A DNA stretch of 64,000 nucleotides from Candidatus Roizmanbacteria bacterium RIFCSPLOWO2_01_FULL_35_13 (GCA_001789635.1 MGAF01000026.1:5055-69054); one strand, 5' to 3'; shown: positions 3,366 through 57,193, counted from the first letter of the stretch. The notes: a model not told the origin generated them from the letters alone. Translations and numbers: made by a program.

Positions 3366-3789
3366 TGGTGGAGGTGCCGGGAATTGAACCCGGGTCCGGA
3401 AGGGCCATTTTAAAAATGTTTAGGTAGAGATAGATTATTTAAATTAAATTCAAATGACAAATAATCAAATGTCAAATGAACGACGATTGATGTTTTTTTG
3501 ACTAATTCGTCAATCGTAAACACGAATTTCGCCTCACCTTAATTGGTTTATCTCTTAATTAAGTTGAACTAAGGGAAACTTAATCAGAGGATCTCAAAGT
3601 TTAGCCTGCGTAAACGAAGGCCTGCTTTTGAGCATATTGGGCAGCAATTACGCCTTCCAATTGCTCTCTAGCGAACGCTCTAAGATCAGCAAAAATATCA
3701 TTCTTTGCTGTTGATTTTTCTGTTTAACGGACAGGTCCGCTCTACCGATTTTTAAAAGTGCATGCTTTCCGTCGATTCCTTTCACCCCC
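3366..3789 (-). ncRNA. ssrA: tmRNA (SsrA), about 424 nt
   Basis: The minus strand starts GGGGGTGAAAGGAATCGACGG and ends ..CCGGGTTCAATTCCCGGCACCTCCACCA. It has a 7-bp acceptor stem with G3-U70, a T-arm and a CCA end. smpB lies immediately upstream on the same strand. Confidence 0.9.
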
Positions 3790-3921
3790 TGTTAGAAACT
3801 GTTTGTGATTTCGACAAAGTCGAAAACACATTATAGTTTCTTACATCCGCCAGCAAACGCTCTTCGAGTCGCAGTTCAAATGAACTAAGGCGAGAAGTAA
3901 GTTGCGGCGGACACTCTATCG

Positions 3922-4371
3922 TTAACTTTTTAAATATTCCTTTGCTTCCCGTTCTTCGTCTAATGCAATATCTCTCTTTTTCTCCAGCTTCTTCTTTTCT
4001 AACCCTTTTCTTCCTTTAGCTAAGGCTATTTCCAGCTTGATTAAACTGTCCTTATTATAACATGAGACAGGCACGATTGTCAATCCGCCCGGACCTGCTA
4101 ATTTCGTCTTTAAGCGTATTATTTCCCTTTTATGAAGTAGTAATTTTCGCGTTCTTCTCGAATCATATCCCTGCGGACGGGCATACTCATAAACTGAGAT
4201 TTCGGCATTGATCAGATAAACTTCAGAACCCATAATTTTGGCGAAACTGTCCTCAAGTCTTATTCTTCCGGCTCTTACAGATTTTACCTCGGGTCCGGTT
4301 AAAGCAATTCCAACCTCATACTTTTCTACCTCCTGATAGTCTCTGCGGAATTTGCGATTATAGATTCTCAT
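3922..4371 (-). CDS. smpB: SsrA-binding protein SmpB
   Basis: Typical SmpB sequence (GIALTGPEVKSVRAG, RTRKLLLHKREI) with a basic C-terminal tail, next to the tmRNA. Confidence 0.9.
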   Translation of the reverse strand: MRIYNRKFRRDYQEVEKYEVGIALTGPEVKSVRAGRIRLEDSFAKIMGSEVYLINAEISVYEYARPQGYDSRRTRKLLLHKREIIRLKTKLAGPGGLTIVPVSCYNKDSLIKLEIALAKGRKGLEKKKLEKKRDIALDEEREAKEYLKS

Positions 4372-9617: not shown

Positions 9618-10439
9618 CTAAATGGGTTTGAATACGAGTAAAACTGCTTCCCCTGTCCCAAAAAATTTATTAACAAACGAAAGAGTTCTAAAATACGACT
9701 TCTTCATTAACGGATAATCCTGTCTTCCGTCATCGGAAAAATATTTTTCAATAACTTTTAAATCTAAACGTTTAAAAAGACTTATTAAATATTTTGTATT
9801 AAAATGCCAGATGTGTTCATTGGGCATAAGTGGTTCCCAGTATTTCTGCCTAAGATAAAAAATAATGTTACTCGTATTTGGGACTCCTAGAATTAATATT
9901 CCACCCCTTTTGAGTATTTTTTTAGCTAAATTAATTTCTTCAACAGGATCTTCAATGTGTTCTAGGACATGATTGTAGATAATGCAGTCAAATTTTTTTT
10001 TATTTCTTCCTAAGAAATCCTGTAATGTTCCTGAAAAAATATCTTTTCCTAATTTATTTTTGGCTATGGAGAAAGCTTTTTTATTTGGCTCGATTCCTTT
10101 GATGTTAAATTCCTCTTTTTTAAGCAGAGTTAATAAAATACCCGAAGAACAGCCAACGTCTAAAATTGTACCGCTCTTTTTATGCTTTTTTATTAAATTA
10201 ACAATCGGTTTGAAAAGCCCTATAAATTTTTCCTGGGAATTATCATAAAATTCGGCCCGGCTTTGCTTTGGGTTAAATTTAACTCCTGATTCAGGAGGAA
10301 ATGTTTTTAATATTCCGCAATTCTCACACTTTCCAATAACTATTCCCTCAAACTCTTTGAAAACTGTTTCATTTTTATAGGAAATAAATTTCCTAAAGTA
10401 AGATTTTTTTCCGTTATCACATATACAGGAAGAAATCAT
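9618..10439 (-). CDS. class I SAM-dependent methyltransferase with an N-terminal Cys-rich region
   Basis: Motif I ILDVGCSSGILL, and CENCG upstream of it. Confidence 0.75.
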   Translation of the reverse strand: MISSCICDNGKKSYFRKFISYKNETVFKEFEGIVIGKCENCGILKTFPPESGVKFNPKQSRAEFYDNSQEKFIGLFKPIVNLIKKHKKSGTILDVGCSSGILLTLLKKEEFNIKGIEPNKKAFSIAKNKLGKDIFSGTLQDFLGRNKKKFDCIIYNHVLEHIEDPVEEINLAKKILKRGGILILGVPNTSNIIFYLRQKYWEPLMPNEHIWHFNTKYLISLFKRLDLKVIEKYFSDDGRQDYPLMKKSYFRTLSFVNKFFGTGEAVLLVFKPI

Positions 10440-11077
10440 AATTCATTTTTTAGTTTTTCTATATCATTGATTATTATGGTTCTGTTTTTTGAACTAACAA
10501 GCTTTTTATTTACCAGCTTTTTCCATTCGCGGCTGGTAGTCTCCCGTGATAATCCGGCCAGTGAAGCAATATCTTTATGGGTAAACATTTCCTGAATTAT
10601 TATCTTATTTTCTTTTTTTTCTCCAAAGTGTTTTGTCAAAAAGATAAGGATAGAGGCGAGTCTGGCAGAAGCCTTTGAGGTTGTGAGCTGTTCGATCCTT
10701 AATGTTAACTTATCCAGACCATTAAGCAGGCGATGAGTAAGATCAAATAAAACATCCGGATTTTTTTGCAGAAAATTAAGGATTTTTTCTTTTGGAGCAA
10801 CATAAAGTTCTATAGGAGTAAGCGCTTCATAATGGAATCTGTTAGGAATATCACTAATAATCCACATCATGGGAAAGTAGGAATTGTTCGCGAACAAATG
10901 GATTGTCGTTTCCACTCCCTGGGGAGAAATTGCATAAGTTTTGACATAACCGTTTTTTATGTAGTAGGCTCCTTGCGGATTTTGATTCGGATGAATGATA
11001 GCCTGGCCCTTTTTATGTTTATGCAGTTCAAAATTAGAAAAAAAAGCATGCACTTTATTTTTAATTTTTTCTTCCAT
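10436..11077 (-). CDS. Crp/Fnr family transcriptional regulator
   Basis: cNMP-binding-like N-terminal domain and a C-terminal HTH (DIASLAGLSRETTSREWKKL). Confidence 0.8.
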   Translation of the reverse strand: MEEKIKNKVHAFFSNFELHKHKKGQAIIHPNQNPQGAYYIKNGYVKTYAISPQGVETTIHLFANNSYFPMMWIISDIPNRFHYEALTPIELYVAPKEKILNFLQKNPDVLFDLTHRLLNGLDKLTLRIEQLTTSKASARLASILIFLTKHFGEKKENKIIIQEMFTHKDIASLAGLSRETTSREWKKLVNKKLVSSKNRTIIINDIEKLKNEL

Positions 11078-11099: not shown

Positions 11100-11115
11100 T
11101 GTGATTTTTATCACT
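11100..11115. promoter_or_regulatory. CRP/FNR-type palindrome TGTGA-TTTTTA-TCACT
   Basis: 16-bp inverted repeat 23 bp upstream of the Crp/Fnr gene ATG, in the divergent spacer with csoR. Nearly identical to 17149-17164. Confidence 0.55.
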
Positions 11116-11203: not shown

Positions 11204-11464
11204 ATGACAACGTATAAAGGAAATTTACTTCACAGACTTAAAATAGCTAGGGGGCATTTTAATAAAGTCATAAATATGGTAGAGGAAGATGAGTACTGTC
11301 TTGATGTAACCCAGCAGACATATGCTATCCAAAATGCACTCAAAAAAATTGATGAAGTAATTCTTGAGCATCATCTAAAAACCTGTGTTAAGGATGCAAT
11401 TGTCAGCGATAAACAGGTCGACGAAAAAGTCGCTGAAATATTACAAGTTTTTAAAAGAAAGTAA
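11204..11464 (+). CDS. csoR: CsoR/RcnR-family metal-sensing repressor
   Basis: DUF156 pattern with the C-H-C ligand set (YCLDV..., EHHLKTC). Confidence 0.85.
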   Translation: MTTYKGNLLHRLKIARGHFNKVINMVEEDEYCLDVTQQTYAIQNALKKIDEVILEHHLKTCVKDAIVSDKQVDEKVAEILQVFKRK

Positions 11465-11466
11465 AA

Positions 11467-11970
11467 ATGTCAAAATCTTTTCTTTTCGGAATTATCATTT
11501 TTTCTCTGGTTGTTATCGGAGGTTCGTATTTTTTAATTGCCGGAAATAAACAAAAAAATTCCAGTACATTACCGGTTGTTTATAGTTTAAAAGACAAAGA
11601 AAAACCAAAAGCGGAAATTAAAGTATCAAGTAAAAATCTGGGAGATATGAAAGTATCTGAGCAAAAATCAGAAGATTTTATAGTTAAAAATGTTGGTAAT
11701 AAACCACTCACACTTTTTAATATTTCCTCAAGCTGTGGCTGCACGGTCGGTCAGATTATTATCGACGGCAAGACAAGTGAAGAGTTTGGCATGCACGCAC
11801 AAAGCGATAAAACCTTTGAGCTTGTACAGGGCAAAGAGGCTACAGTAAAGGTAACGTATCGACCCTATGTTATGCCAGTATCCGGCAAAGTTGACAGACA
11901 GGTTTTTATTGAAACCAACGATCCGGAAAACCCGAGAATAGAATTCAAAGTTACAGCTAATGTAAAGTAA
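11467..11970 (+). CDS. DUF1573 domain protein, membrane-anchored
   Basis: N-terminal TM helix and SSSCGCTV in a NxGxxPL..SCGCT context. Confidence 0.75.
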   Translation: MSKSFLFGIIIFSLVVIGGSYFLIAGNKQKNSSTLPVVYSLKDKEKPKAEIKVSSKNLGDMKVSEQKSEDFIVKNVGNKPLTLFNISSSCGCTVGQIIIDGKTSEEFGMHAQSDKTFELVQGKEATVKVTYRPYVMPVSGKVDRQVFIETNDPENPRIEFKVTANVK

Positions 11971-11971
11971 A

Positions 11972-12781
11972 ATGGAAAATAATTTATTGTTGGGATTTTC
12001 CTTAACCGCTTCTTTTTTAGCGGGATCTTTAGCATTATTTGCACCCTGTTGCATAACTTTTCTTTTTCCATCTTATTTGGGGACAATTTTCAAGGAACAA
12101 AGAAAGGTTATGTTTTATACAATTATTTTTGCCTTAGGATTATCTGTAATCTTAATTCCAATTGCTCTTGGATTCAGATTCTTCATGTATTTTTTTGACC
12201 AATATCATAAGGAAGTATATTATCTGGGAGCAATCGTGCTTATATTTATGGGAGTTATGACAGTAAAGCCTTTTTTTGCAATTCCTCAATTTTTTCATTT
12301 TAAACCCAATATCAACAAAAAAATAAATGTCGGATCGGTTTTTGGCTTAGGATTTATGTCCGGCCTGACTTCATCATGCTGCGCACCGGTGCTTTTTGCC
12401 GCTGTAACTCTCACTAGTCTTTCTCCCAATATGTTTCAGGCATTTCTTGTTTCCTTTGCCTATGTTTTGGGAATTGTCTTTCCGCTTTTTATTCTTTCGT
12501 TGATTTATCAAAAAACTACCCGATCAATAACAGGTGTAATGAGGCATAAAATTCATACCATATTTACATGGTTTGGGGCAGTAATATTTATTCTTTCCGG
12601 AGTCCTAATTGCGGTTTTTACTTATCTGGATAAAATCCAGATGTATCAGATGGAAGGATACAGTAAAAACATCCGTATGTTCATATTTCAATTCGGAAAG
12701 TATTTCCAAAATCCTATTATAGACGTCGGTGCATTCATATTAATAATTTTTATTTTTTATAAGTTAATAAAAAAGAGGTAA
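11972..12781 (+). CDS. CcdA/DsbD-like thiol-disulfide transporter
   Basis: Polytopic, with FAPCC and SSCCAPV Cys motifs in TM helices. Confidence 0.65.
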   Translation: MENNLLLGFSLTASFLAGSLALFAPCCITFLFPSYLGTIFKEQRKVMFYTIIFALGLSVILIPIALGFRFFMYFFDQYHKEVYYLGAIVLIFMGVMTVKPFFAIPQFFHFKPNINKKINVGSVFGLGFMSGLTSSCCAPVLFAAVTLTSLSPNMFQAFLVSFAYVLGIVFPLFILSLIYQKTTRSITGVMRHKIHTIFTWFGAVIFILSGVLIAVFTYLDKIQMYQMEGYSKNIRMFIFQFGKYFQNPIIDVGAFILIIFIFYKLIKKR

Positions 12782-12882
12782 AATTCCCTACGCTGACATT
12801 TGTCTTTCCTGATTTTGCCTGAGTGAATTGGAAGAAATTAAAGATCTCAATAACTTATAATTTATTACCGGGATTATTTTAT

Positions 12883-13239
12883 ATGGATAAAATACTTGTC
12901 GGACTGTTCAGTGTTGCCGGAATGTTTTTTACTTATTGGTTTTTTCTAATGAAAAAAGAGGATGTGATTTCTGTGACTGATTCTGTGGATATAACTGTTG
13001 AGGGAGGATATTCTCCAAACATTATTTCAATCTCGCTGGGTAAAACAATAAAGATTAATTTTTTCCGTAAAGATCCATCAAGCTGTTTGGAGGAGGTAGT
13101 TCTTGGTGATTTTAAAATCAGAAAATATTTGCCCTTAAATCAAAAAATAACTATTGAAGTTACTGCGAAGGAAAAAGGCGAATTTGCTTTTACCTGCGGC
13201 ATGGGAATGTTTCACGGAAAAATTGTGGTTAGTGATTAG
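12883..13239 (+). CDS. cupredoxin-like domain protein (membrane-anchored)
   Basis: TM helix plus a C-terminal FTCGMGMFHGKIVV motif. ATG at 12883 is preferred over GTG at 12823. Confidence 0.6.
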   Translation: MDKILVGLFSVAGMFFTYWFFLMKKEDVISVTDSVDITVEGGYSPNIISISLGKTIKINFFRKDPSSCLEEVVLGDFKIRKYLPLNQKITIEVTAKEKGEFAFTCGMGMFHGKIVVSD

Positions 13240-13243
13240 TAAT

Positions 13244-13640
13244 TAGTAGCTAGTGTTTAGTCGTTAAAAATATGAAATCCTATAAAGAGTTGATTGTCTG
13301 GCAAAAAGCAATAAGCTTAACTGAATTAATCTATAAAACTACTTGGAATTTTCCGAAGGCAGAGATTTACGGATTGACTTCTCAAATAAGAAGATGCTCT
13401 GTTGCTATTCCTTCAAATATTGCAGAAGGATTTCACCGAGGTCATAGAAATGAATATATACAGTTTCTTAGAATTGCATATAGTTCAGGTGCTGAACTGG
13501 AAACTCAACTTTTAATTGCTTTAAGGATTAATTATCTAAAACAAGAAGAATTCGAAAAATTAAATAATCTTCTGCAAGAAATTATGAAAATGTTAAATGT
13601 ACTAATTTTTAAATTGACTGATTCTAAACACTAACCACTA
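13244..13640 (+). mobile_element. Four-helix-bundle gene cassette bounded by 17-bp inverted repeats
   Basis: TAGTAGCTAGTGTTTAG (13244-13260) matches the reverse complement of 13624-13640 (TAGTGGTTAGTGTTTAG) at 15/17 positions. It fills the gap between the cupredoxin stop and the copA ATG. Confidence 0.5.
13272..13634 (+). CDS. four-helix-bundle protein (23S rRNA intervening-sequence protein family)
   Basis: [10 protein letters not shown]...[35 protein letters not shown] is the typical family pattern. Confidence 0.85.
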
Positions 13641-15922
13641 TGCCCTACAAACTAACTAAGCGATCTTTTGTTATTAAAGGAATGCATTGCGCAAGTTGTG
13701 TGCGTGTGACAGAACGGGCACTCAAAAAAACACCCGGCGTTACTGACGCCGTGGTTAATCTTGCTACGCAAAAAGCAATGGTCACTTATGATGAAGATAA
13801 CTGCACACAAGAACAGCTTGCAAATTCTATAGCAAAAACCGGTTACACATTAGAACTTGAACAAAAAGGTGAAACAGTGATTCAGGAAGAAAAGAAAAAA
13901 GAATTGCAAATTTTAAGAAATAAGGTAGTTATAAGTCTCGGACTTGGCTTTTTAATATTCTGGGGAAGTTTTCCGGTTCTCATGGAGACTGCACCGGCAA
14001 TTCTACGCAACTTCTTTGTGCAGTTATTATTAGCTACTCCTGTCCAATTCTGGGCAGGGCAGGAATTTTACCGCGCAACTATTCCGGCTCTAAAACACAG
14101 GACTGCAAATATGGATACATTGGTCGCGTTGGGTACAACGGTCGCTTATTTTTATTCGGCTTTTGTTACTTTTTTTCCGCAAGTCATAATGAATTTAGGT
14201 ATGGATCCTATGCCATATTTTGATGTCGCAGTTATTGTCATTGGTCTAATACTTCTCGGAAGATATTTTGAAGCAAAAGCCAAAGCCGGAACTTCGCAGG
14301 CAATTAAAAAGTTAATCGGACTTCAGGCAAAAACAGCAAGAGTCCTTCGGCAAGCTCCCTCCTTCGCTGGAGCTTCGAAGGGCAGGCAGGATAAATTAAT
14401 TGAAGTTGATATTCCAATTGATCAAGTGCAGATTGGAGATATTATCCGGGTCAGGCCGGGAGAAAAAATTCCGGTTGACGGAATTATTACCGTTGGTGAA
14501 TCAAGTATAGATGAATCAATGATTACGGGAGAATCTATTCCAATTGACAAAACAAAAGGCGATACGGTTGTCGGAGCCACGATGAATAAATCTGGAACTT
14601 TTACCTATAAGGCTACCAAGGTCGGAAATGAAACAATGCTGGCGCAGATTATAAAACTGGTTGAAGAAGCCCAGGGCAGCAAAGCTCCTATTCAAAGATT
14701 GGCTGACGTTGTATCGTCTTACTTTGTTCCTGTTGTTATTATGCTGGCGTTTTTGACATTTGGAGTCTGGTATATCTTTGGTCCGCAGCCTTCATTTTTA
14801 TTTGCGATGCTCAATACAGTCGCCGTTCTGATTATTGCCTGTCCCTGTGCAATGGGTCTGGCTACGCCTACGGCGATTATGGTTGGCACAGGAATCGGGG
14901 CAGAGCATGGTATTCTCATAAAAGATGCCGAATCTTTAGAAACTGCACATAAGATTAATACAATTATTTTTGACAAGACCGGAACACTGACGAAAGGAAA
15001 ACCAGAAGTAACAGATATTATATCTTTGAATAAAACAAACAAAGATGAAATATTAAAACTAGCCGCATCTATTGAAAAAGGTTCTGAACATTCTTTAGCT
15101 GAAGCTATTGTTAAAGAAGCAGAAAAGCAAAAGCTTGTCCTGAACAAAGTTGAAGGATTTAAAGCAATTGCCGGATATGGAGTTGAGGGACTACTCGAAA
15201 AAAACCAATTGTTTTTAGGTAACAGAAGATTAATGAATAAAGAAAATGTTTCTGTAGCCTCATATAATAGTGAAATAACCCGATTAGAAGGAGGAGGTAA
15301 AACCGTAATGATGCTTGCAATAAATAGAAAACTTGCGGGTCTAATCGCCGTCGCAGATACAGTTAAAGATTCTGCAAAAGAAGGGGTTGCTCAACTTCAA
15401 AAACTTGGGATAGAGGTCGTAATGATAACAGGAGATAATGAGAAAACAGCACAAGCAATTGCAAAACAAGTGGGAGTAAACCGTGTTTTGGCTGAAGTAT
15501 TACCCGACCAAAAAGAACTAGAGATAAGAAAAATACAAAAAGAAGGAAAAAAAGTAGCAATGGTAGGAGATGGTATCAATGATGCTCCAGCCTTAACTGC
15601 TGCAGATGTTGGTATAGCGATGGGTACGGGTACTGACGTTGCAATAGAAGCGGCAGATATAACGCTTATCAATAAAGATCTGAAAAGTGTTGCTTCTGCG
15701 ATTGAACTTTCCAAAAAAACCATGCGGACTATAAAGTTAAATCTGATCTGGGCATTCGGTTATAATATTATTTTGATTCCTGTTGCTATGGGTATTCTTT
15801 ACCCGTTCTTTGGTATTTTATTGAATCCGATTCTGGCCTCAGTAGCTATGGCAACATCAAGCATTTCGGTTGTCTCAAATTCGTTATTGCCTAAGAGATT
15901 TAAAATAAATTATGACAATTAA
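13640..15922 (+). CDS. copA: copper-translocating P1B-type ATPase
   Basis: N-terminal HMA domain (GMHCASC), CPC motif ([11 protein letters not shown]), [15 protein letters not shown]. Confidence 0.95.
14344..14390 (+). repeat. GC-rich palindromic element inserted in frame in copA (encodes [13 protein letters not shown])
   Basis: CCTTCG-GCA-AGCTCC-[loop]-GGAGCT-T-CGAAGG. Homologous copies lie at 21771-21808 and 21061-21094. Confidence 0.7.
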
Positions 15923-16934
15923 TTTTTGGACAATTTTTCTAACAGGACTTTTTACGGGCGGATTAACATGCCTTGCGGTGCAAGGAGGTCTGCTTGCGGC
16001 AACCATCGCACAACAGGAAGAAGAAAAGTTAAAGGAAAAAACAAAGCTGACAGGAAATGCCTTGCCAGTGACTGCATTTCTAGTAGCAAAACTTATTGCC
16101 TATACCGGATTAGGATTTTTTCTTGGCTGGTTTGGTTCTTTTTTTCAAATATCATTGGCTTTTCAGGTTTTAATGCAGTTTGCAGTCGTTGTTTTTATGA
16201 TCGGAACGGCTTTGAATCTCTTAAATATCCATCCGATATTCCGGTATTTTGTCATACAACCCCCTAAATTTTTAACCCGTCTTATAAGAAGACAATCTAA
16301 AAATAAAAATTTATTTGCGCCAATTCTATTGGGAGCATTTACGGTTTTTATTCCCTGCGGAACTACACAGGCTATGATGGTTCTCGCTATAGGATCAGGC
16401 AGTCCTGCATTGGGAGCCGCAATTCTTTTTGCATTTGTTATCGGTACATCGCCGCTTTTTTTTACACTCGGATATTTTGCAATGAAGTTGGGTGATTCGC
16501 TTCAGCAAAAGTTTATGAAATTAGCGGCCTATTCATTGATCCTTCTTGCTATTTTTAATTTAAACGGCGCAATTGCGCTTACCGGAAGCAGTTTTACTTT
16601 TGAAAATATCGGAAGTAATTTTTGGTGTTATTTGACTTCCTGCAAAGGAAACACTTTGGGAGCTGCAGTTACAGAAGCTGTAATTGAGTTTAACGCGGGG
16701 TATTATAATCCCAGTTTGATTACGGTTAAGACAAATTCAGAAGTCAAACTTAATTTGGTGAATAAAGACGGAAGCAGCTGTATGCAGTCTTTTGTTATAC
16801 CATCTCTGGGCATTCTAAGAATGGTTCAATACGGAACTTCGGATATTGTAGAGTTTACTGCTCCTAAAGAGGTTGGAAGGCTGACTTTTATGTGTGGGAT
16901 GGGAATGTATAGAGGAGTAATTAACGTTATTTAA
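15912..16934 (+). CDS. DsbD_2/TauE-like membrane domain fused to a C-terminal cupredoxin-like domain
   Basis: [13 protein letters not shown] and FIPCGTTQA in TM helices. C-terminal [14 protein letters not shown] parallels ORF 12883..13239. Overlaps the copA stop by 11 bp. Confidence 0.6.
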
Positions 16935-16939
16935 TTTTT

Positions 16940-17149
16940 ATGGTCAAAAAAGTTTTTAAAATTCAAGGTATGCACTGTACAGCCTGCGCTATGGACATTG
17001 ATGGTGAGTTGGAAGATACAGAAGGAATCAAAGAGTCGAATACCAATTATGCCAAGCAGTTGTCTGAAATTATTTTTGATCCCGGCAAAGTGTCGGAAGA
17101 AAAAATAAGAGATATTATCAAAGGACTTGGTTATAATGCTACTTATTAA
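16940..17149 (+). CDS. copZ: heavy-metal-associated domain copper chaperone
   Basis: GMHCTACAMDI (MxCxxC) in a 69-aa protein. Confidence 0.85.
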   Translation: MVKKVFKIQGMHCTACAMDIDGELEDTEGIKESNTNYAKQLSEIIFDPGKVSEEKIRDIIKGLGYNATY

Positions 17150-17164
17150 GTGATTCTTATCACT
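17149..17164. promoter_or_regulatory. CRP/FNR-type palindrome AGTGA-TTCTTA-TCACT
   Basis: Perfect 5-6-5 inverted repeat about 34 bp upstream of the VKOR ATG. GTGATTNTTATCACTGA is shared with 11101-11117. Confidence 0.55.
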
Positions 17165-17197
17165 GAGTAAACTATCAGAATGTAATAAAATTTATTC

Positions 17198-17617
17198 ATG
17201 TCTAAGGAAAAAATATTTTATTACGTCAAAATTTTAGCAATAATAGGCTTATTACTCTCAACATACCTTCTCTGGCAGCAATTTTTTCACCCGGCATTCC
17301 AACCCTGTAATATAAATAGTTGGATAAACTGTGACGCGGTAATTTCTGGACCTGTGGCAAAAACCTTAGGAATTCCGACACCACTGTACGGATTTATCGG
17401 GTATATTATTATTTTTTTTGCAGCATTATTCCGTAAAACAAAATTAATGTTGGGGATGGCTGGTTTTGGTTTGATTTTTTGTCTGTGGATTGCCTATCAG
17501 GAACTTTTCCTACTTAGGGTAATTTGCCCGGTTTGTATATCCTGCCAGATAGTTATGATTTCTATTTTTATACTTTCGCTAAAAGTAAGGAAAATTCCTA
17601 CGGATAACAGATTGTAA
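17198..17617 (+). CDS. vitamin K epoxide reductase (VKOR) family protein
   Basis: Four hydrophobic helices, a loop Cys pair (CNINSWINC) and an active-site CxxC (CPVC). Confidence 0.75.
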   Translation: MSKEKIFYYVKILAIIGLLLSTYLLWQQFFHPAFQPCNINSWINCDAVISGPVAKTLGIPTPLYGFIGYIIIFFAALFRKTKLMLGMAGFGLIFCLWIAYQELFLLRVICPVCISCQIVMISIFILSLKVRKIPTDNRL

Positions 17618-17636
17618 ACTCTGATAAAATAAATTG

Positions 17637-18104
17637 ATGAATAAACTTAGAGTTGGTTGGTTTTCTTTTTCCTGCTGTGAAGACTCTACTATAATTTTTA
17701 CCGAGCTCCTAAATAATCACTATTTGGAATGGAAAAAGAAACTTGAGTTTGTGCACGCGAAAGTCTTAAAAAGGAGTCCTGACATTATTCCGGATATGGA
17801 TATTGCATTTGTCGAGGGAGCCATTACCTCGGATTCGCAGGAAAAAAAACTCAGAAATATCAGGGAAAAAGCAAAAATAATTGTGGCGATTGGAGCCTGT
17901 GCCGTAATCGGCTCTCCCTCAAACCAGAGAAATTTTTTTAATGAAAAACAATCGGAAGAAATAAAATCTATTCTAGAAAATTTCAAATATAAAGATAAAG
18001 TTTTTAAGGTATCGGATATTGTTAAAGTGGATGAAGTCGTTCCCGGCTGTCCGATGAATGAAGAAATATTTTTAAGAATTGTTAATAAATATCTGAACCA
18101 ATAG
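17637..18104 (+). CDS. [NiFe]-hydrogenase small subunit-like protein (NuoB/HoxY-type, short)
   Basis: FSFSCCEDS, GACAVIGSP and VPGCP Cys motifs, and it pairs with the adjacent large subunit. No twin-arginine signal. Confidence 0.6.
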   Translation: MNKLRVGWFSFSCCEDSTIIFTELLNNHYLEWKKKLEFVHAKVLKRSPDIIPDMDIAFVEGAITSDSQEKKLRNIREKAKIIVAIGACAVIGSPSNQRNFFNEKQSEEIKSILENFKYKDKVFKVSDIVKVDEVVPGCPMNEEIFLRIVNKYLNQ

Positions 18105-18109
18105 TTTTA

Positions 18110-18178
18110 GTCATTCTGGGGAGCGAAGCGACTCCAGAATCGTAGTTTAAACAACGATTCCGGACAAGCCGGAATGAC
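18110..18178 (+). repeat. GTCATTC..GAATGAC miniature inverted-repeat element (full copy)
   Basis: Terminal inverted repeat GTCATTCTGG/CCGGAATGAC. Internal hairpins TTCTGGGGAG..CTCCAGAA and ATTCCGG-ACAAG-CCGGAAT. Confidence 0.75.
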
Positions 18179-18188
18179 GTGAATAATA

Positions 18189-19499
18189 ATGCACGATATA
18201 AATGACAGTTTTGATATAAATCTGGACGAAGTTTCCAAAGTGGAGGGGGCTGCTTCTCTTGAAATAAAAGTAAGAAACAGAAAAATCGAGGATCTGAAAT
18301 TTTATATCTCCGAATGGAAGCGTTTCTATACCCAGGCGATTCAGGGAAAACCGGTAGTTGCAGCACCTCAGTTGGTAGCCAGAATTTGCGGAACCTGTTC
18401 CAATGCTCATCTTCTGTGTTCTATAAAAGCTATAGAAAATGCTTTTGGAATAATTCCGTCTCCTCAAACAATGCTTTTAAGAAAATTACTTTATTATGGT
18501 TTGATTATCAGGGACCACGGATTGCACCTTTATATTTTTTCTATGCCGGATCTGTTCGGTAAAAATTCCATACTTGATTTTGATGAAAACATTCCTGCGG
18601 AAAAAGAGCTTCTGGAAGAAACATTTTCGGTGAAAGAAGTGGGCAATCTGCTTTCGATTGTTGTTGGCGGCAGATCGGTTCATGCTCCAATGCCAACTAT
18701 CGGTGGATTTCTAAAATTACCTAAACTTGATGATCTTAAAAATCTTGTTCCAAAACTAAACGAAATCAGACCGAAAATTCTAAAATTGATAAAAATATTT
18801 GCCGAAGCCCCTTTGAATTTAAAAACTTCAGCAAAACTGAATTTCAGCAGTCTTGTTTCGCCGGACTTTTCTTTTCTTGAGGGAAAACTGAAAAATTCAA
18901 TAGGAGAGACGATGCTAACTAACGAACTGTCTAGCTATCTGGAAACAGTAATCATACCTTATTCGCATGCCCGCGGTTTTAAACTTCAGGGAAATCTGAT
19001 GATGGTGGGAGCTTTAGCAAGACTGAATTTGGCTAAGGATAATCTTCATTCTAAAACTAAACTGGACTCAGCCAAATATCTAAGTTTTTTTCCGTCAACC
19101 GATTTATTTCACAATAATTTAGCACAAGCAATAGAAATGCTTCATTCGGTTGATTCTTCAATTGATTTAATCCAGAGTCTGAGCATTATAAATGATGAAA
19201 AACCTCAAAAATTAATTCCCAAAAAATCAGTCGGTGTTGGAACAATTGAAGCTCCAAGAGGGACACTTTTTCATAAATACGAAATTGATGAACACGGAAC
19301 AATTAAAAAAGCCGAGATTATAGTCCCGACCGGTCAAAATCATGTACTTATGGAGAGAGGAATTTTTGAACAGACTAAAAAACTATTATTGGAAAAAGCG
19401 GATAAAGAAAAAATTATCTTTGAAGCAGAAAGACTGATCCGCGCTTTTGATCCCTGCATGTCCTGCGCCTCACACTTTTTGAAAGTTAAGTGGAAATAA
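18189..19499 (+). CDS. [NiFe]-hydrogenase large subunit
   Basis: N-terminal RICGTCSNAH (RxCGxCxxxH) and C-terminal DPCMSCASH (DPCxxCxxH), followed by a 7-aa tail. Confidence 0.85.
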   Translation: MHDINDSFDINLDEVSKVEGAASLEIKVRNRKIEDLKFYISEWKRFYTQAIQGKPVVAAPQLVARICGTCSNAHLLCSIKAIENAFGIIPSPQTMLLRKLLYYGLIIRDHGLHLYIFSMPDLFGKNSILDFDENIPAEKELLEETFSVKEVGNLLSIVVGGRSVHAPMPTIGGFLKLPKLDDLKNLVPKLNEIRPKILKLIKIFAEAPLNLKTSAKLNFSSLVSPDFSFLEGKLKNSIGETMLTNELSSYLETVIIPYSHARGFKLQGNLMMVGALARLNLAKDNLHSKTKLDSAKYLSFFPSTDLFHNNLAQAIEMLHSVDSSIDLIQSLSIINDEKPQKLIPKKSVGVGTIEAPRGTLFHKYEIDEHGTIKKAEIIVPTGQNHVLMERGIFEQTKKLLLEKADKEKIIFEAERLIRAFDPCMSCASHFLKVKWK

Positions 19500-19872
19500 C
19501 GTTCCTAATAAGCGTAGTTAAATGTATCATCTTTGTACGATCGAGCAAAGATGGTATGCCTATAATTTTTACTGAATTAATTCTTTTTAACTTTTTCAAT
19601 AATAAAAGATGCATCCCGAGATCGTAATCATGGGGTGAGTTGGGAGATTTTTGAATATTTTGCAGATCATTTAGGCCGAACATTTTCGGTTTTTTTATTC
19701 CTTTAATCGTATCAATAATTACCAAATCTTTTTCATTTTCCGGAGGAAAATTTTCATTCGGGTCTACGATTTCAAACTCTATTTTCGGGAAAGTTTTTTT
19801 AAGTTCAGGAAGGATTTTTACGGGTAAATTGTCTGCTTTAACTAACGGATTGCCAAACACATAAATTTTCAT
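19486..19872 (-). CDS. hydrogenase maturation endopeptidase (HycI/HoxW-like)
   Basis: MKIYVFGNPLVKADNLP (GNxL..D pattern), the right size, and adjacent to the large subunit. Convergent 14-bp overlap with it. Confidence 0.6.
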   Translation of the reverse strand: MKIYVFGNPLVKADNLPVKILPELKKTFPKIEFEIVDPNENFPPENEKDLVIIDTIKGIKKPKMFGLNDLQNIQKSPNSPHDYDLGMHLLLLKKLKRINSVKIIGIPSLLDRTKMIHLTTLIRNVIST

Positions 19873-19882
19873 ATTTTTTCCT

Positions 19883-19942
19883 GTCATTCCCACGAAAGTG
19901 GGAATCCAGATTAAATAGATTCCGCATCAAGTGCGGAATGAC
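19883..19942 (+). repeat. GTCATTCC..GGAATGAC miniature inverted-repeat element (full copy)
   Basis: ATTCCCAC-GAAA-GTGGGAAT and ATTCCGCA-TCAAG-TGCGGAAT hairpins between the terminal inverted repeats. Confidence 0.75.
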
Positions 19943-19947
19943 ATTGA

Positions 19948-20727
19948 TCAACTATTAAAGAATTCTATTGCTTTTTTTGTATAAAAATCTAAATTTTTCA
20001 CCTGAATTAGAGTTAAAACATCACATACAAAACCCCAGTGAAAGCTGACCCAGTCGCCAACCTTCAATACCGGTAAGAAAGACTTTCCTTTGTAATCGAT
20101 TTTTAATTCTTTTATGTCTGGTCTACTCATTATTAATTGATAGTTGTTAATAGTTAATTGTTTCGCTTTGACTAAAATATTTTTGATTTTTGATCTGTTT
20201 TTTTGATTTTTAATATTTGATATTTGATATTCTCCAAGATTAATGATTTGTCCAAAACCTATTCGGCAACTATCCATAGTTTCTAAAGTATGGTTTACGA
20301 CCATAATTCCAGTTCTTTTGAAGATATTAAAAACATGAAAAGCATGGTGTGGATAAAACTTACTCGACAATATTTTTGATTTTACTTTTTGAAATTTTAT
20401 ATCTCCCATTTTTTTCTCCAGGTTAAGTTCTTCCTGCAGCAGATATGAGTAGTTTTTATTTGAAATATTGTCTAAAAGGGAATTTCCGATCCAGTAGGCT
20501 TCCACGACTTTTTCATTAAACGGATCAGGAATTTTATTTTCTGTTGAAATAAGTTTTAGGTATGAATATAAAGTCTCAAACTGCGACAGTATTATTTTTA
20601 CTTCTTTATCGGCAACTTTTTCTTTCAAGTGATCTATCAAACTAGCGTTTTCCTCCGGTCCGCAGTAGCCGAAAAAATTGGGAGCCGAAGAATATTTTAC
20701 GCAAAGCAGTAGTCCTTTTGGGTCCAT
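19948..20727 (-). CDS. conserved hypothetical protein with a HypC-like C-terminal motif
   Basis: C-terminal VGDWVSFHWGFVCDVL resembles HypC/HupF GDYVLVHVGFAI. Family not identified. Confidence 0.4.
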   Translation of the reverse strand: MDPKGLLLCVKYSSAPNFFGYCGPEENASLIDHLKEKVADKEVKIILSQFETLYSYLKLISTENKIPDPFNEKVVEAYWIGNSLLDNISNKNYSYLLQEELNLEKKMGDIKFQKVKSKILSSKFYPHHAFHVFNIFKRTGIMVVNHTLETMDSCRIGFGQIINLGEYQISNIKNQKNRSKIKNILVKAKQLTINNYQLIMSRPDIKELKIDYKGKSFLPVLKVGDWVSFHWGFVCDVLTLIQVKNLDFYTKKAIEFFNS

Positions 20728-20797: not shown

Positions 20798-21733
20798 CTA
20801 TTTTGATTGCAAAAAATGTAATTTTTTAACAAGGGAAGGGACGAGAATTATCAATAGGGCTAGGCTAATTAATAGAGAAGTATTTATATCTTTCGGAAGA
20901 ATTCTTACTCCTGCAAATGAACCATTTAAAATGTTTCCAACAACAACCGCAAAAGTAAGAATTAATGAAACTAAACTGGCAGGCGCGTATTTAAGCGCTT
21001 TGTACCAGGTGAAGACGTAAAAGAAAAGAATTGTGCCGCCAATAAATACAATTGTTAATTGCTTGCCCGCCGAAGCTTCAGCGGAGGCGGGTTGATTAAA
21101 AATATTCAATAATAAAGGGCCTTTTCCAGTTAAAATAGTCGTTAACATTAATAAACTTCCGCCGATTCCCATCCGGAATAATCCAACTAATTCCGACGAA
21201 ACATTTTTTAAAACTTTTTTTGCCAAAATATTTTCCCCACTCCAAAGTAATGTGGCAGCTAAGACCATGATTTCGCCTCGACCCAAGGAAAGACTCAATT
21301 TTCCCAGGAAAAAATTGGCGATAATGATTAAGGTAAAACTAATAAGGTAAGTAATATTTAATTTTTCCTTGAGAAATATTACGGCCAAAATTGTTACCCA
21401 AATAAATAAAGATTTTTGAATTAAATTAGCGCTAATCGCTGGAATAAATTGCAATCCGGTGAAAAATAGATAGAAAGGTAAAGCTCCTCCGATTAAACCA
21501 ATTAAAGAAAGTAAAACAAACTGTTTTTTTGATAACTTTTTTAATTCATGCAATTTACCTGAAAATAAAAACAGAAGCAAAAACAAAATTCCTACATAAA
21601 AATTACGTGATGAAGTCAGGACTAAGGGAGAAATTTGCGATACAGAAATTTTTGAATAAAAAATTGCAATACCTGAAATTAGTGAGGCTAGGAATGCTAA
21701 TAAAACTCCTTTTGTAACATTGTTTTTTTGCAT
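20798..21733 (-). CDS. EamA/DMT family transporter
   Basis: About 10 hydrophobic helices in two EamA-like halves. ATG at 21733 is preferred. Confidence 0.7.
   Translation of the reverse strand: MQKNNVTKGVLLAFLASLISGIAIFYSKISVSQISPLVLTSSRNFYVGILFLLLFLFSGKLHELKKLSKKQFVLLSLIGLIGGALPFYLFFTGLQFIPAISANLIQKSLFIWVTILAVIFLKEKLNITYLISFTLIIIANFFLGKLSLSLGRGEIMVLAATLLWSGENILAKKVLKNVSSELVGLFRMGIGGSLLMLTTILTGKGPLLLNIFNQPASAEASAGKQLTIVFIGGTILFFYVFTWYKALKYAPASLVSLILTFAVVVGNILNGSFAGVRILPKDINTSLLISLALLIILVPSLVKKLHFLQSK
21061..21094 (-). repeat. GC-rich palindromic element inserted in frame in the EamA gene (encodes QPASAEASAGKQ)
   Basis: The coding-strand CCGCCTCCGCTGAAGCTTCGGCGGGCAAGC matches the copA element at 24/30 positions, in the same reading frame. 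Confidence 0.65.
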
Positions 21734-21753
21734 ATTTGAAAAAGTAGATTCTG

Positions 21754-21874
21754 TCACTCGTGATCCCTTCTCTCCCACCTTCGCTAAAGCTTCGGACGGG
21801 CACGCCTGCTTGCGCTTCCTTGCCCCTCAAAGTCTGAAAGACGAAGTGGGGTCGGAGAGTCACCTCACTCGTGA
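21754..21874 (+). repeat. About 100-bp GC-rich element flanked by the 10-bp direct repeat TCACTCGTGA
   Basis: TCACTCGTGA occurs at 21754-21763 and 21865-21874. The interior contains CTCCCACCTTCGCTAAAGCTTCGGACGGGCA (the copA-element family) and CGAAGTGGGG. Confidence 0.55.
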
Positions 21875-21906: not shown

Positions 21907-22083
21907 CTAAAAAGTAACTTGTTTTGGTTCAATTTTTTGAATTATTAGGTTTCCGTAAACTATTACTAAATCATCGACTTTTATTTTACCGGCGTTTTTA
22001 TCATAAACGGCTTTAATCCCATTTTCAAGAAAGGCTTTTTTACCTTCGATTTTTTTTACCTTAAGGGGCCTTAAATAACACAT
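21907..22083 (-). CDS. HypC/HupF-like hydrogenase assembly chaperone (58 aa; below the ORF-track cutoff)
   Basis: Hand translation gives MCYLRPLKVKKIEGKKAFLENGIKAVYDKNAGKIKVDDLVIVYGNLIIQKIEPKQVTF. It has the Met-Cys start and the HypC layout. Confidence 0.5.
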   Translation of the reverse strand: MCYLRPLKVKKIEGKKAFLENGIKAVYDKNAGKIKVDDLVIVYGNLIIQKIEPKQVTF

Positions 22084-33205: not shown

Positions 33206-34324
33206 ATGTATGATCCTCGAGTCAAGAAAGTAAGGGAGACATTAGCGGAAAAAAATATTGATTCTTTATTGGTTTCAAATTTCTACAATATTTTTTACCT
33301 GACAGGATTCAAAACTCTTACTACCGATGAGAGGGAAGCTTTTATTTTGATAACAAAGAATAGTGTCTACCTTTTTTCTGATGAACGATATATTTCAAAG
33401 AATTTCCCTGCCTCGCCGGCAGGCAGGCAATTACCAATTTCTAATTTCCAATGTAGATTAATCGAACCGGGGAAGGGATTGATTTTTCATCTGCAGGAAA
33501 TCATTAAGAGTGAACAGATAAAAACTCTGGGATTTGAAGCAGAAGATTTAAAATATTCAGAGTATCAAAAAATAAAGGAATTTTTGGGAAATGTTAATCT
33601 AACTTCAACAGACAGATTAATCATAACCATCCGTGAAATAAAAGATCAACAAGAAATAGATTTGGTTGAAAAAGCTTGTGAGATTGGAGATCAGTGTCTA
33701 TCGGACATAATCAAAATTATTAAATTTGGTGTTTCGGAAAAAGAAATTGCGTTCAAGATGGAGATGTGGATTAAAGAGAAAGGTTATGATATCTCGTTTG
33801 ATCCGATTGTGGCGATCGATGCCAACTCTGCAGTTGCTCATTACAATACCAAAACCGGAGAGGGAAAAATTAAGAACGGTTCGGTTATACTTTTGGATTT
33901 CGGGGTTAAGTATAAAGACTATCTTTCCGATATGACGCGGATGGTTTTTTTTGGAAAGTCAAACAATGAAGTAGAAAACGCATATCAAGTTTTATTGAAT
34001 GCACAGGAAAAAACAGTTGAAAAAGTCGCAGATTTTGATTTTTTAAAAGATATTGATAATTTTTGCCGAAAACAGATAACTGACAGCCGATTACCAAATT
34101 ATCCTCACTCTACCGGTCACGGGGTAGGACTTGAAATACACGAATATCCAAAAGTTTCTTTTAACTCTCCTGACCGAAAGATTATAGGACAGGTTATAAC
34201 TATTGAACCCGGAGTTTATTTTCCCGGTAAATTCGGAATGAGAGTGGAGGATATGGTAGTAATCGACAAAGACTTAAAACCAAAAATCCTGACAAAATTC
34301 CCAAAGACTTTATTGATTATTTAA
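33206..34324 (+). CDS. Xaa-Pro aminopeptidase (M24B)
   Basis: HSTGHGVGLEIHEYP, and VEDMVVI near the C-terminus. Confidence 0.85.
   Translation: MYDPRVKKVRETLAEKNIDSLLVSNFYNIFYLTGFKTLTTDEREAFILITKNSVYLFSDERYISKNFPASPAGRQLPISNFQCRLIEPGKGLIFHLQEIIKSEQIKTLGFEAEDLKYSEYQKIKEFLGNVNLTSTDRLIITIREIKDQQEIDLVEKACEIGDQCLSDIIKIIKFGVSEKEIAFKMEMWIKEKGYDISFDPIVAIDANSAVAHYNTKTGEGKIKNGSVILLDFGVKYKDYLSDMTRMVFFGKSNNEVENAYQVLLNAQEKTVEKVADFDFLKDIDNFCRKQITDSRLPNYPHSTGHGVGLEIHEYPKVSFNSPDRKIIGQVITIEPGVYFPGKFGMRVEDMVVIDKDLKPKILTKFPKTLLII
33406..33453 (+). repeat. In-frame composite insertion in the M24 peptidase gene: GC-rich palindrome plus heptamer array (encodes PASPAGRQLPISNFQ)
   Basis: CTGCC-TCGCC-GGCAG, then AATTTCT AATTTCC. 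The GGCAGGCAATTA end matches the EamA copy (GGCAAGCAATTA). Confidence 0.6.
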
Positions 34325-55375: not shown

Positions 55376-55605
55376 TGATTAGATTCTACGAACATCATAA
55401 AAGATCTTTAGTCAAAACACTTAGTTTTCGCATTCTGGTTATGTTTTTCGATTTTTTTATTATAGTAATAATTACCAAGCGTTATGACATAGCCTTAGGA
55501 GTTTTACTTTTTTCCAATTTTTCGAGCACCGTTTTGTATTTTTTCCACGAAAGAATCTGGAACAATATTAATTGGGGTAAACAAAATCAGATCAATACCC
55601 GGTAA
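55375..55605 (+). CDS. DUF2061-type small membrane protein
   Basis: KRSLVKTLSFRI...YFFHERIWNNINWG. TGATG overlap with the upstream gene. Confidence 0.65.
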   Translation: MIRFYEHHKRSLVKTLSFRILVMFFDFFIIVIITKRYDIALGVLLFSNFSSTVLYFFHERIWNNINWGKQNQINTR

Positions 55606-56326
55606 ATTTTTCTTTCCTAATTTTTAGAACGTCTATTCCCAAAGTTTTTAAAATATTATCCACAGCATCTACCATCAAAGGCGGACCAGCAATGTAAAAG
55701 ATTGACGATTTATAGCCTGGTATATTATTTATTATGAAATTTTTATTAATTCTGCCGGTTTTTCCTGGCCAGGGTAACTTTGAATTTTCCGGCTGAGTTA
55801 TAGTTTCAATAAATCTAAACCAGGATTTTTTAGAAGCGATTTCTTTTAATTCAGCCTGAAATACAATATCTTCCACAACACTTGATGAAACCAAAAGCGT
55901 AATTGGAATTTTGAGGTTTGAATCTGCGGTATAACGGACCATACAGCGAAAGGGAGTAATGCCAATACCTCCGGCAAGCAAAACATGAGGAATTGTTTCT
56001 TCGGGATTTAATATAAAAGATCCGTATGGCAAACTCATCTGAACTTTTGAATTTACTTTAAGATTCAACAAAGTTTGTTTAAAGTCGCTGTCACGGATCC
56101 GTACCGTAATCATGAGAAATTGCTTTTCCGATGGAGAAGAAGCAATTGAGAAAAATCTTCCGTTACCCCTGTCTGAGGATTGGGGTATACTCAGAAATAA
56201 TCGCAAAAACTGTCCTGGGTAAAAATCCAAGTCTCTGGGTCTTTCAAAATAAAAAGAATAGGTGTTAAGTGCGACATGTTCCTTTTTTAAAAGTTTTGTC
56301 TCAATTTTTCGAGCAATTATTGCCAT
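55592..56326 (-). CDS. FNR-like FAD/NAD(P)-binding oxidoreductase
   Basis: RFFSIASSP (RxYS-type FAD motif) and LLAGGIGITPF. Confidence 0.65.
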   Translation of the reverse strand: MAIIARKIETKLLKKEHVALNTYSFYFERPRDLDFYPGQFLRLFLSIPQSSDRGNGRFFSIASSPSEKQFLMITVRIRDSDFKQTLLNLKVNSKVQMSLPYGSFILNPEETIPHVLLAGGIGITPFRCMVRYTADSNLKIPITLLVSSSVVEDIVFQAELKEIASKKSWFRFIETITQPENSKLPWPGKTGRINKNFIINNIPGYKSSIFYIAGPPLMVDAVDNILKTLGIDVLKIRKEKFTGY

Positions 56327-56360
56327 GGTATAAATGTATATTATATAATTTTATCTGGAT

Positions 56361-57149: not shown

Positions 57150-57193
57150 GTATAATTGAATATGCAAAATAATGAAAGGCGGGTGATTAATTT

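Follow-up and report, generated by a model that had tools for sequence, protein, structure and literature searches.

A VKOR gene directly upstream of a hyd2-type [NiFe]-hydrogenase in a Roizmanbacteria-like bacterium: probable shared Crp-type regulation rather than electron coupling

Hyd2 hydrogenases are a clade, sister to the [NiFe]-hydrogenases of group 3b, that is specific to bacteria of the candidate phyla radiation (CPR). Their small subunits are consistently truncated (mean length 164 aa), they have no proximal beta or gamma subunit genes, a hypC-like family is found nearby, and some of them have PF07992 flavoproteins and an FeS family in their vicinity (Jaffe et al., 2020, BMC Biol, PMC7304191). 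Their function was called 'uncertain' by the same authors, who also inferred transfer of hyd2 within the CPR. VKOR and MdbA-like oxidoreductases are common across the CPR (PMC6744442). We analysed a 64-kb stretch of low-GC DNA (about 35% GC; MGAF01000026.1:5055-69054), referred to below as the window, in which a VKOR gene (vkor) lies directly upstream of hydS and hydL, the genes of a minimal two-subunit hydrogenase, and downstream of a CRP-type box. The source is a Roizmanbacteria-like CPR bacterium, and the genomes with the nearest HydL in homologue searches are Roizmanbacteria. The explanation that we favour, with a probability of roughly 0.62, is a shared Crp-type regulation of VKOR, as an envelope thiol and copper-stress function, and of hyd2, and not an electron coupling between them.

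The hydL gene (18189-19499, + strand) encodes a 436-aa protein that matches PF00374 (E=6e-30, 105 bits for a cutoff of 25.8) and carries both Ni-Fe-ligating motifs of a [NiFe]-hydrogenase large subunit, L1 (RICGTCSNAH, residues 65-74, 18381-18410, + strand) and L2 (DPCMSCASH, residues 421-429, 19449-19475, + strand), L2 being succeeded at the C-terminus by a conserved tail of 7 residues. Neither motif varies among 32 homologues. The closest solved structures are group 3b sulfhydrogenases, 5yxy from T. kodakarensis (8e-60) and 9nez, the P. furiosus SHI enzyme (1e-58), which HydL matches over the full length (E about 1e-58 to 1e-60); in NCBIfam it comes closest to the alpha subunits of sulfhydrogenases, ShyA and HydA (5e-72 and 2e-63), under their equivalog cutoffs (243 vs 700 bits). 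The top 120 homologues are 61-100% identical, and those with a named source come nearly all from Roizmanbacteria, Microgenomates or Patescibacteria.

The hydS gene (17637-18104, + strand) encodes a 155-aa protein with the NuoB-like small-subunit fold of PF01058 (E=6e-19). Its alignment with the P. furiosus delta subunit, a protein of 261 aa, stops after the N-terminal ~150 residues (1-150); therefore, HydS holds just the proximal-cluster region and is devoid of the C-terminal part (~110 residues) in which delta has its medial and distal clusters. No twin-arginine motif or Tat signal is present in its N-terminus (MNKLRVGWFSF). The candidate cluster ligands are C13, C14 (or D16), C88 and C138. 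At residues 13-16 (17673-17684) the sequence C-C-E-D replaces the usual proximal-cluster CxxC; in 75 distinct HydS sequences C13, E15, D16, C88 and C138 are invariant or nearly so, and position 14 is taken by Cys in 67 and by Ser in 6. For this cluster, ligation may be by tandem cysteines, as in NuoB, or by Asp.

Compared with group 3b enzymes, the window hydrogenase has the same L1 and L2 motifs and is similarly cytoplasmic, but it is a heterodimer instead of an alpha-beta-gamma-delta enzyme, and its small subunit, with four conserved Cys positions and CCED instead of CxxC, is much shorter than a delta subunit of ~260 aa with proximal, medial and distal clusters. No beta (FeS) or gamma (FAD/NAD(P)) subunit is encoded next to hydSL or elsewhere in the window, none turned up beside hydSL in the related loci that were examined, and no diaphorase (FeS/flavin) subunit or cytochrome b gene is adjacent. 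A small subunit with the proximal cluster alone is also found in NuoB/NuoD of complex I, in group 4 hydrogenases and in HoxY of group 3d. HydS resembles these proteins in its single proximal cluster, and NuoB in its tandem cysteines, but hyd2 differs from NuoB/NuoD by the absence of membrane subunits, and the HydS-NuoB similarity is marginal (E about 1e-4). A truncated small subunit (155 aa, and ~156-175 aa in relatives), the absence of proximal beta and gamma genes and a CPR genome are the characteristics of hyd2, and we infer membership of this clade from an architecture that is common to all close homologues. Classified in this way, the window hydrogenase is the CPR-specific, group 3b-related hyd2, an already described type. 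It shows no essential difference from the hyd2 of Jaffe et al. (PMC7304191); the VKOR/Crp-box context, the CCED motif and DUF6390 (see below) are absent from that paper.

The vkor gene (17198-17617, + strand) encodes a 139-aa protein that matches PF07884 (E=6.5e-25, 88.3 bits for a cutoff of 27.5), with four predicted transmembrane (TM) segments and the four catalytic cysteines of the family, the loop pair C37/C45 and the active-site CxxC C110-P-V-C113, all intact and invariant in 33 orthologues. The 671 homologues at E<=1e-8 are mostly from Microgenomates. The vkor stop codon ends at 17617 and the hydS ATG is at 17637, leaving a gap of 19 nt. Like the VKOR of the VKOR/MdbA pair of Actinomyces oris and of the VKOR/DsbA pair of M. 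tuberculosis, the window VKOR is a stand-alone 4-TM protein with a loop Cys pair and a CxxC; unlike in these pairs, no DsbA/MdbA-like gene was found within the window by homologue search. A literature search found no paper linking VKOR with hydrogenases.

An earlier reading of this DNA, the original prediction, had called a 4-TM VKOR gene 19 nt before hydS, a 155-aa small subunit with one set of cluster Cys and no Tat signal, and a 436-aa large subunit with intact RxCGxCxxxH and DPCxxCxxH motifs. The coordinates, profile matches, TM prediction, delta alignment and motif conservation agree with these calls, and the reported lack of adjacent diaphorase subunits and cytochrome b was confirmed and extended, for beta and gamma, to the whole window. 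The hydrogenase is no unexplained oddity: since hyd2 was described (PMC7304191), a minimal two-subunit hydrogenase of this kind is a known one.

Conservation of the vkor-hydSL arrangement was examined in ~160 related loci, centred on hyd2 or on VKOR. On the hyd2 side, a scan of species-representative genomes returned at least 307 relatives, and 80 loci with 10-kb flanks were used, some of them truncated by contig ends; counts out of 84 add four loci fetched before (L001-L004), two of which duplicate scan loci and two of which are from the species of L007. L001 is an 85%-identical relative of the window, and L001 and L007 are from the sister species. On the VKOR side, an orthologue-alignment scan of metagenome contigs gave 80 loci, of which 45 were informative (at least 1.5 kb downstream of VKOR), with a VKOR 60-78% identical to that of the window.

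VKOR is directly upstream of hydS in three of the 80 hyd2 loci (L007, L043, L044). In three others it is at the opposite end of the hyd2 cluster, either divergent from a HypC-like gene (L046) or in a DsbA-VKOR pair upstream of EamA/HypC-like genes (L072, L077); in three more it is elsewhere within 10 kb (L035, L037, L066), and it is absent within 10 kb in 71/80. DsbA-VKOR pairs, DsbA being a thioredoxin-fold protein, are present in L035, L046, L072 and L077. The VKOR of L043, L044 and L046 is of another subfamily (CTWC active site instead of the CPVC of the window, about 29% identity), and the vkor-hydS gaps of 8 nt and 19 nt thus occur in two lineages with different VKOR subfamilies. Among the informative VKOR loci, hydSL was present in 2/45, both from the species of L001, and 43/45 had no hyd2. 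The vkor-hydSL arrangement is therefore rare and lineage-specific. The original prediction had proposed its conservation in relatives as a check: the adjacency is not unique to this genome, as it occurs in the sister species and, with the other VKOR subfamily, in L043 and L044, but it is rare in both directions. The far more consistent neighbours of VKOR are Crp, the CsoR-CopA-CopZ cluster or DsbA: among the 45 loci a Crp-family gene was found in 14, often immediately upstream and on the same strand, CsoR in 8 and CopA in 9, with the copper cluster, of the form CsoR-CopA-DsbD_2/cupredoxin-CopZ, beside VKOR in either order. The usual company of the gene in this VKOR subfamily is thus a Crp-family regulator, a CRP-type box about 48 nt before the start codon and a copper and envelope-thiol cluster of the CsoR-CopA-CopZ/CcdA kind. 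Those of hyd2 are DUF6390, EamA and HypC-like genes and, in a subset, ferredoxin together with a ferredoxin reductase-like (FNR-like) flavoprotein.

In the window, CRP-type box 2 (GTGATTCTTATCAC, 17150-17163) directly follows the copZ stop codon and lies 48 nt upstream of the vkor ATG, and box 1 (cTGTGATTTTTATCACTGA, 11101-11114), which has an equivalent in L001, lies in the divergent crp/csoR promoter region. The palindrome GTGA-N6-TCAC occurs four times in the window for 0.4 expected, a number reached in 0 of 100 shuffles; the other two sites, at 23122 and 27616, are inside open reading frames (ORFs). The nearby Crp/Fnr-family gene (10436-11077, - strand) encodes a 213-aa protein (PF00027 and PF13545) whose best NCBIfam matches, NtcA and CRP, are both under cutoff; its translation contains no cysteine, hence it is not an Fe-S FNR. 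The VKOR box was found at -46 to -49 in L001/L086/L087, L085, L093, L096 and L126, and is conserved in at least six independent loci. In L093, L096 and L126 it is kept with 6 kb downstream and no hydrogenase, which identifies the box as a feature of the VKOR promoter. In L001 a DUF5676 gene stands between ccdA and vkor, where the window has cupredoxin-IVP-CopA-DsbD_2-CopZ, and the box-VKOR-hydSL segment is unchanged. GTGA-N6-TCAC is also present upstream of a Trx-DsbD pair in L001, and absent at the equivalent place near the DsbD-Trx gene of the window.

Two hyd2 loci of other lineages have a similar organization: in the Gottesmanbacteria locus L035 the box is 67 nt upstream of hydS, beside a divergent crp gene, and in L043 a box with one mismatch (TGTAATGTATCTCACA) separates crp from vkor-hydS. 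As for the TGTGA-N6-TCACA sites of the CRP/FNR family, the palindrome is found at the promoters of the regulator itself and of its presumed target; the position of the box would fit class II activation and, unlike FNR, the window regulator has no cysteines. An enriched and conserved predicted palindrome next to a crp-family gene has the sequence properties of a CRP-type operator. The box noticed in the original prediction is real in this sense, being enriched (4 vs 0.4), accompanied by a Crp-family gene and conserved in the 85%-identical relative despite a different upstream gene. Together these observations point to a putative Crp-family regulon made up of genes for envelope thiol redox and for copper, joined in some lineages by hyd2.

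The three genes vkor, hydS and hydL are on the same strand, with gaps of 19 nt (vkor-hydS) and 84 nt (hydS-hydL), and no terminator-like site was found on the + strand in either gap. The first strong hairpin, terminator-like with a 14-bp stem (19523-19558, + strand), is 24 nt after the hydL stop codon and likely marks the end of the predicted vkor-hydS-hydL unit. Co-transcription of the three genes is plausible because the 19-nt gap contains no terminator, and a gap of 19-20 nt devoid of terminator is kept in two species, the window species and its sister.

According to the favoured explanation, a rearrangement in the window species and its sister would have set hydSL 19-20 nt downstream of VKOR, so that the hydrogenase is most likely read from the Crp-dependent promoter of VKOR. 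A Crp-family regulator bound at box 2 would drive a vkor-hydS-hydL transcript, with possible read-through from the copper operon into it. VKOR would act as a DsbB-like, quinone-dependent oxidase of extracytoplasmic proteins of the DsbA/MdbA type, in a host that probably has neither quinone synthesis nor a respiratory chain. Hyd2 would be a cytoplasmic heterodimer with a soluble ferredoxin as its electron partner, and its main role would be to release fermentative reductant as H2, the ferredoxin being presumably encoded outside the window in the source genome. VKOR and hyd2 would then be linked by a common redox or stress signal and not by electrons. The analysis shows which genes these are, how far their motifs and the box are conserved and how often each neighbour recurs; from this we infer that the three genes are co-transcribed, that a ferredoxin is the partner, which way H2 metabolism runs and what kind of signal the regulator senses.

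Several points weigh against this explanation. The sequence would also allow a separate hydS promoter inside the 3' end of vkor. The candidate ferredoxin partner is taken from other lineages, and neither a ferredoxin motif nor homologues of the ferredoxin or FNR-like partner were found across the window. Furthermore, VKOR flanks hyd2 in six species, in at least three arrangements, and for random placement of a gene present in one to three copies the rough expectation is well under one case in 80. Since six species exceed this rough estimate, the VKOR-hyd2 association may be partly functional and not purely regulatory.

A flavoprotein of the Pyr_redox_2+Reductase_C type, an FAD/NAD(P) reductase, is present in 18/84 loci, mostly of Parcubacteria type, and a single-cluster ferredoxin (PF13370) in 12/84; both usually come immediately before hydS, and in L072 and L077 the gaps are 0 to -1 nt. 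By analogy with these loci, electron transfer from NAD(P)H through the flavoprotein and ferredoxin to HydS is the most consistent candidate path. In L072 and L077, ferredoxin and FNR-like genes upstream of hydS coexist with a canonical DsbA-VKOR pair at the opposite end of the cluster; therefore, VKOR is not an alternative electron partner in these two loci. A second candidate partner, a hidden diaphorase formed by an FNR-like/RnfD-like/cupredoxin trio of the window (55592-57676), was rejected, as the trio is unlinked to hyd2 in all 84 hyd2-centred loci; its FNR-like gene (55592-56326), 36 kb away, has a weak similarity to HydG (5e-14, 52 vs 650 bits). In the trio, a 244-aa FNR-like flavoprotein (FAD_binding_6+NAD_binding_1) is divergent from a 262-aa RnfD/NqrB-like membrane protein and a 160-aa cupredoxin-like protein; it could be a minimal membrane redox module, and the FNR-like and RnfD/NqrB-like genes are neighbours in L144 as well.

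In most of the 84 loci, hydS-hydL is followed by a convergent operon composed of a small ORF, DUF6390, EamA and sometimes a HypC-like gene, which would constitute the conserved accessory or maturation set of hyd2. In the window the small ORF (19486-19893, - strand, ~130 aa), convergent with hydL and conserved in 61/84 loci, has no family match: no Pfam, NCBIfam or PDB phmmer match was obtained, nor any match to the PDB with a 14-sequence profile, and its single-sequence AlphaFold2 (AF2) model is poor (pLDDT 46). Its position, where a maturation endopeptidase gene (HybD/HycI) would be expected, and a GN..D..D..H pattern had suggested such a protease; a comparison with a HycI sequence by hhalign yielded a probability of 0.2, and the ORF is left unassigned, its position being the sole hint. 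The DUF6390 protein (19948-20727, - strand, 259 aa, PF19927, 8e-49) is encoded in 65/84 loci. Its AF2 model (pLDDT 69) has an N-terminal helical domain and a C-terminal HypC-like barrel, and this barrel alone matches HypC in Foldseek (2z1c and 3vyt, probability 0.98-0.99, with weak E-values). The barrel contains the motif GDWVSFHWGF, and the Cys-containing N-terminus (C8, C21-G-P) is highly conserved, its 33 conserved residues being modelled with low confidence. Some members are named 'hydrogenase maturation factor' by JGI, and no paper on DUF6390 was found; it may be a hyd2-specific maturation chaperone. The operon further encodes an EamA/DMT-family membrane transporter (20798-21778, - strand, PF00892, 3e-31; 59/84 loci) and a 58-aa HypC-like protein starting with MCYLRP (21907-22083, - strand, PF01455, E=9.7e-4, under the curated cutoff; 33/84 loci). 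No hypD, hypE or hypF was found in the window or in most hyd2 loci. However, HypE and HypF motifs adjoin hyd2 in L039, and in L060 the gene between hydS and hydL (3397-4086) codes for a NicO-like nickel transporter, a membrane protein whose loop is rich in His; these sequences support the assignment of hyd2 as a genuine Ni-Fe enzyme, and the NicO-like gene supports its dependence on nickel. The window contains a NicO-family gene of its own (58054-58776), some 38 kb away from hydL.

The best-surviving alternative, which we nevertheless regard as unlikely, is a neutral juxtaposition: a mobile hyd2 would have landed in a flexible metal/thiol island, with VKOR and hydSL expressed independently and the box serving VKOR only. 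The transfer of hyd2 within the CPR inferred by Jaffe et al. (PMC7304191) is in its favour, as are the presence of the box upstream of VKOR orthologues that have no hydSL and the GC-rich hairpin elements, putative insertions, found in the hydS-hydL spacer and in several coding regions (see below). In addition, the ccdA-vkor segment is swapped between the window and its 85%-identical relative L001, which indicates a high gene flux at this site. The short vkor-hydS gap without terminator in two species, the independent crp-box-hydS and crp-box-vkor-hydS arrangements of L035 and L043, and the occurrence of VKOR beside hyd2 more often than we would expect by chance argue against it.

The coupling of VKOR and hydrogenase electrons suggested by the original prediction is not supported by the comparison of related loci and is improbable. 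In its most developed form, VKOR and a class-2, quinone-dependent dihydroorotate dehydrogenase (DHODH) would share a small pool of scavenged quinone with hyd2 through its single tandem-Cys cluster, and thiol-disulfide chemistry outside the cytoplasm would have H2/H+ as its sink or source, in a cell devoid of respiratory chain. The recurrence of VKOR at hyd2 cluster flanks, beyond the rough chance expectation, would be explained. Tandem-Cys ligation is a trait of the quinone-reducing cluster N2 of complex I, which the C13-C14 pair of HydS recalls, C13-C14-E15-D16 replacing CxxC. The window encodes a VKOR-DHODH fusion, a VKOR gene is directly upstream of a DHODH gene in L133, and in L080 a DHODH gene stands between hydS and hydL. 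No quinol oxidase or cytochrome was seen in the window, and reoxidation of VKOR in Actinomyces needs menaquinone and an electron transport chain (PMC5478893). However, the great majority of hyd2 loci have no VKOR within 10 kb (71/80) and nearly all VKOR-orthologue loci have no hyd2 (43/45); in L072 and L077 ferredoxin and FNR-like genes are translationally coupled to hydS, and VKOR has its normal DsbA partner. The topology is opposed, with the VKOR active site outward and hyd2 cytoplasmic, devoid of membrane subunit and of Tat signal. From menaquinol (about -74 mV) to H+ (-414 mV), electrons would have to climb about 340 mV, a steeply uphill transfer, in agreement with the caveat attached to the original prediction that this step is unfavourable. 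Finally, DHODH inside hyd2 is found in one locus. If true, this coupling would bear on what hyd2 does, and on how VKOR and quinone-dependent DHODH are reoxidized without an electron transport chain.

The three pairwise links, VKOR-DHODH, VKOR-hydSL and DHODH between hydS and hydL in L080, hint at a broader scheme in which VKOR, class-2 DHODH and hyd2 would form one redox network around a scavenged quinone in CPR bacteria devoid of respiratory chain; we consider it just as doubtful. There is the same low chance that, within such a network, the tandem-Cys cluster of hyd2 would react with quinone/quinol or directly with the flavoenzyme, H2/H+ then being the terminal sink or source for pyrimidine synthesis as well as for extracytoplasmic disulfide chemistry.

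Least probable of all is that hyd2 does not metabolize H2 and is a sensor or a sulfur/disulfide reductase keeping the hydrogenase fold: its function was called uncertain (PMC7304191), hypD, hypE and hypF are missing from the window and most loci, group 3b relatives have sulfhydrogenase activity (PMC7304191, PMC10811913) and thiol-redox genes co-localize with hyd2, but 32 diverse homologues all keep the four Ni-Fe cysteines and the two motifs unchanged, a NicO-like gene and HypE/HypF motifs accompany hyd2 in L060 and L039, and the HypC-like and DUF6390 (HypC-like fold) genes are conserved with it.

The VKOR-DHODH fusion of the window (62332-63885, - strand) is a 517-aa protein with an N-terminal VKOR domain, including the four catalytic Cys, followed by a class-2 quinone-dependent DHODH (NF003652, 285 bits for a cutoff of 267). 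Near-full-length fusions form about eight to ten clusters at 50% identity, and one named member, from candidate division WWE3, is annotated as DHODH only. No paper was found on the fusion or on a link between VKOR and DHODH in bacteria. In L080 (8391-11290) the class-2 DHODH (371 aa, 50% identical to the window DHODH domain) is separated from its neighbours by gaps of 1 and 4 nt and lies downstream of ferredoxin and FNR-like genes. In L133 (1147-2297) a VKOR orthologue 65% identical to the stand-alone VKOR of the window is directly upstream of DHODH, in a different reading frame. With this fusion comes the question of how a cell that has no respiratory chain balances two activities that reduce quinone.

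The copper/envelope-thiol cluster that ends at VKOR spans 11204-17149, and its genes, assigned by Pfam and all on the + strand, encode a CsoR-like protein (11204-11464), a DUF1573 protein (11467-11970), a CcdA-like protein (11972-12781), a cupredoxin (12823-13239), a 23S-IVP protein (13272-13634), CopA (13640-15922), a DsbD_2-cupredoxin protein (15912-16934) and CopZ/HMA (16940-17149). The CopA sequence contains CPC, YN and MxxSS, which we take to be the motifs of P1B-1 ATPases. On the other side, a class I methyltransferase gene (9618-10439, - strand; Methyltransf_23, with a weak UbiE/COQ5 similarity, E=0.006) overlaps the crp stop codon by 4 nt and accompanies crp in L001, L086 and L087 too; that it might modify a scavenged quinone is pure speculation.

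The 84-nt hydS-hydL spacer (18105-18188, + strand) consists of GC-rich nested hairpins (-29.6 kcal/mol, z = -3.9, for the RNA fold of 18095-18200), without any T-tailed + strand terminator. A repeat search found no further copies of it in the window. The spacer is absent in L003, where hydS and hydL overlap, and L001 and L004 have other hairpin elements in its place. Similar short GC-rich palindromic elements in AT-rich DNA were observed at 2025-2168, 21786-21829 and 33399-33436, and in-frame GC-rich elements, putative insertions, at 14344-14390 in copA and at 21059-21096 in eamA, where the element gives PASAEASAGKQ. An Rfam scan of 16900-19600 returned nothing at E<=1, and the tmRNA alone was found in the whole window, where tmRNA and SmpB form a pair at 3366-4371. 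The window further contains a giant 2494-aa ORF with a Metallophos domain (38373-45857, + strand), a 1209-aa ORF (49893-53522, - strand) with internal repeats of about 300 nt (50566-51421), and many toxin-antitoxin or defence-type genes (two PIN, two Fic, two AbiEii and a HepT-like).

In conclusion, on the best-supported reading this locus is an ordinary one, a further example of hyd2 that probably shares a promoter with a VKOR gene. To what is known of hyd2 it adds CCED as a cluster motif conserved in the small subunit, and firmer comparative support for ferredoxin and ferredoxin reductase as the partner of the enzyme in some lineages. It also adds a candidate Crp-family regulon that would join envelope thiol and copper-stress genes with H2 metabolism in Microgenomates.

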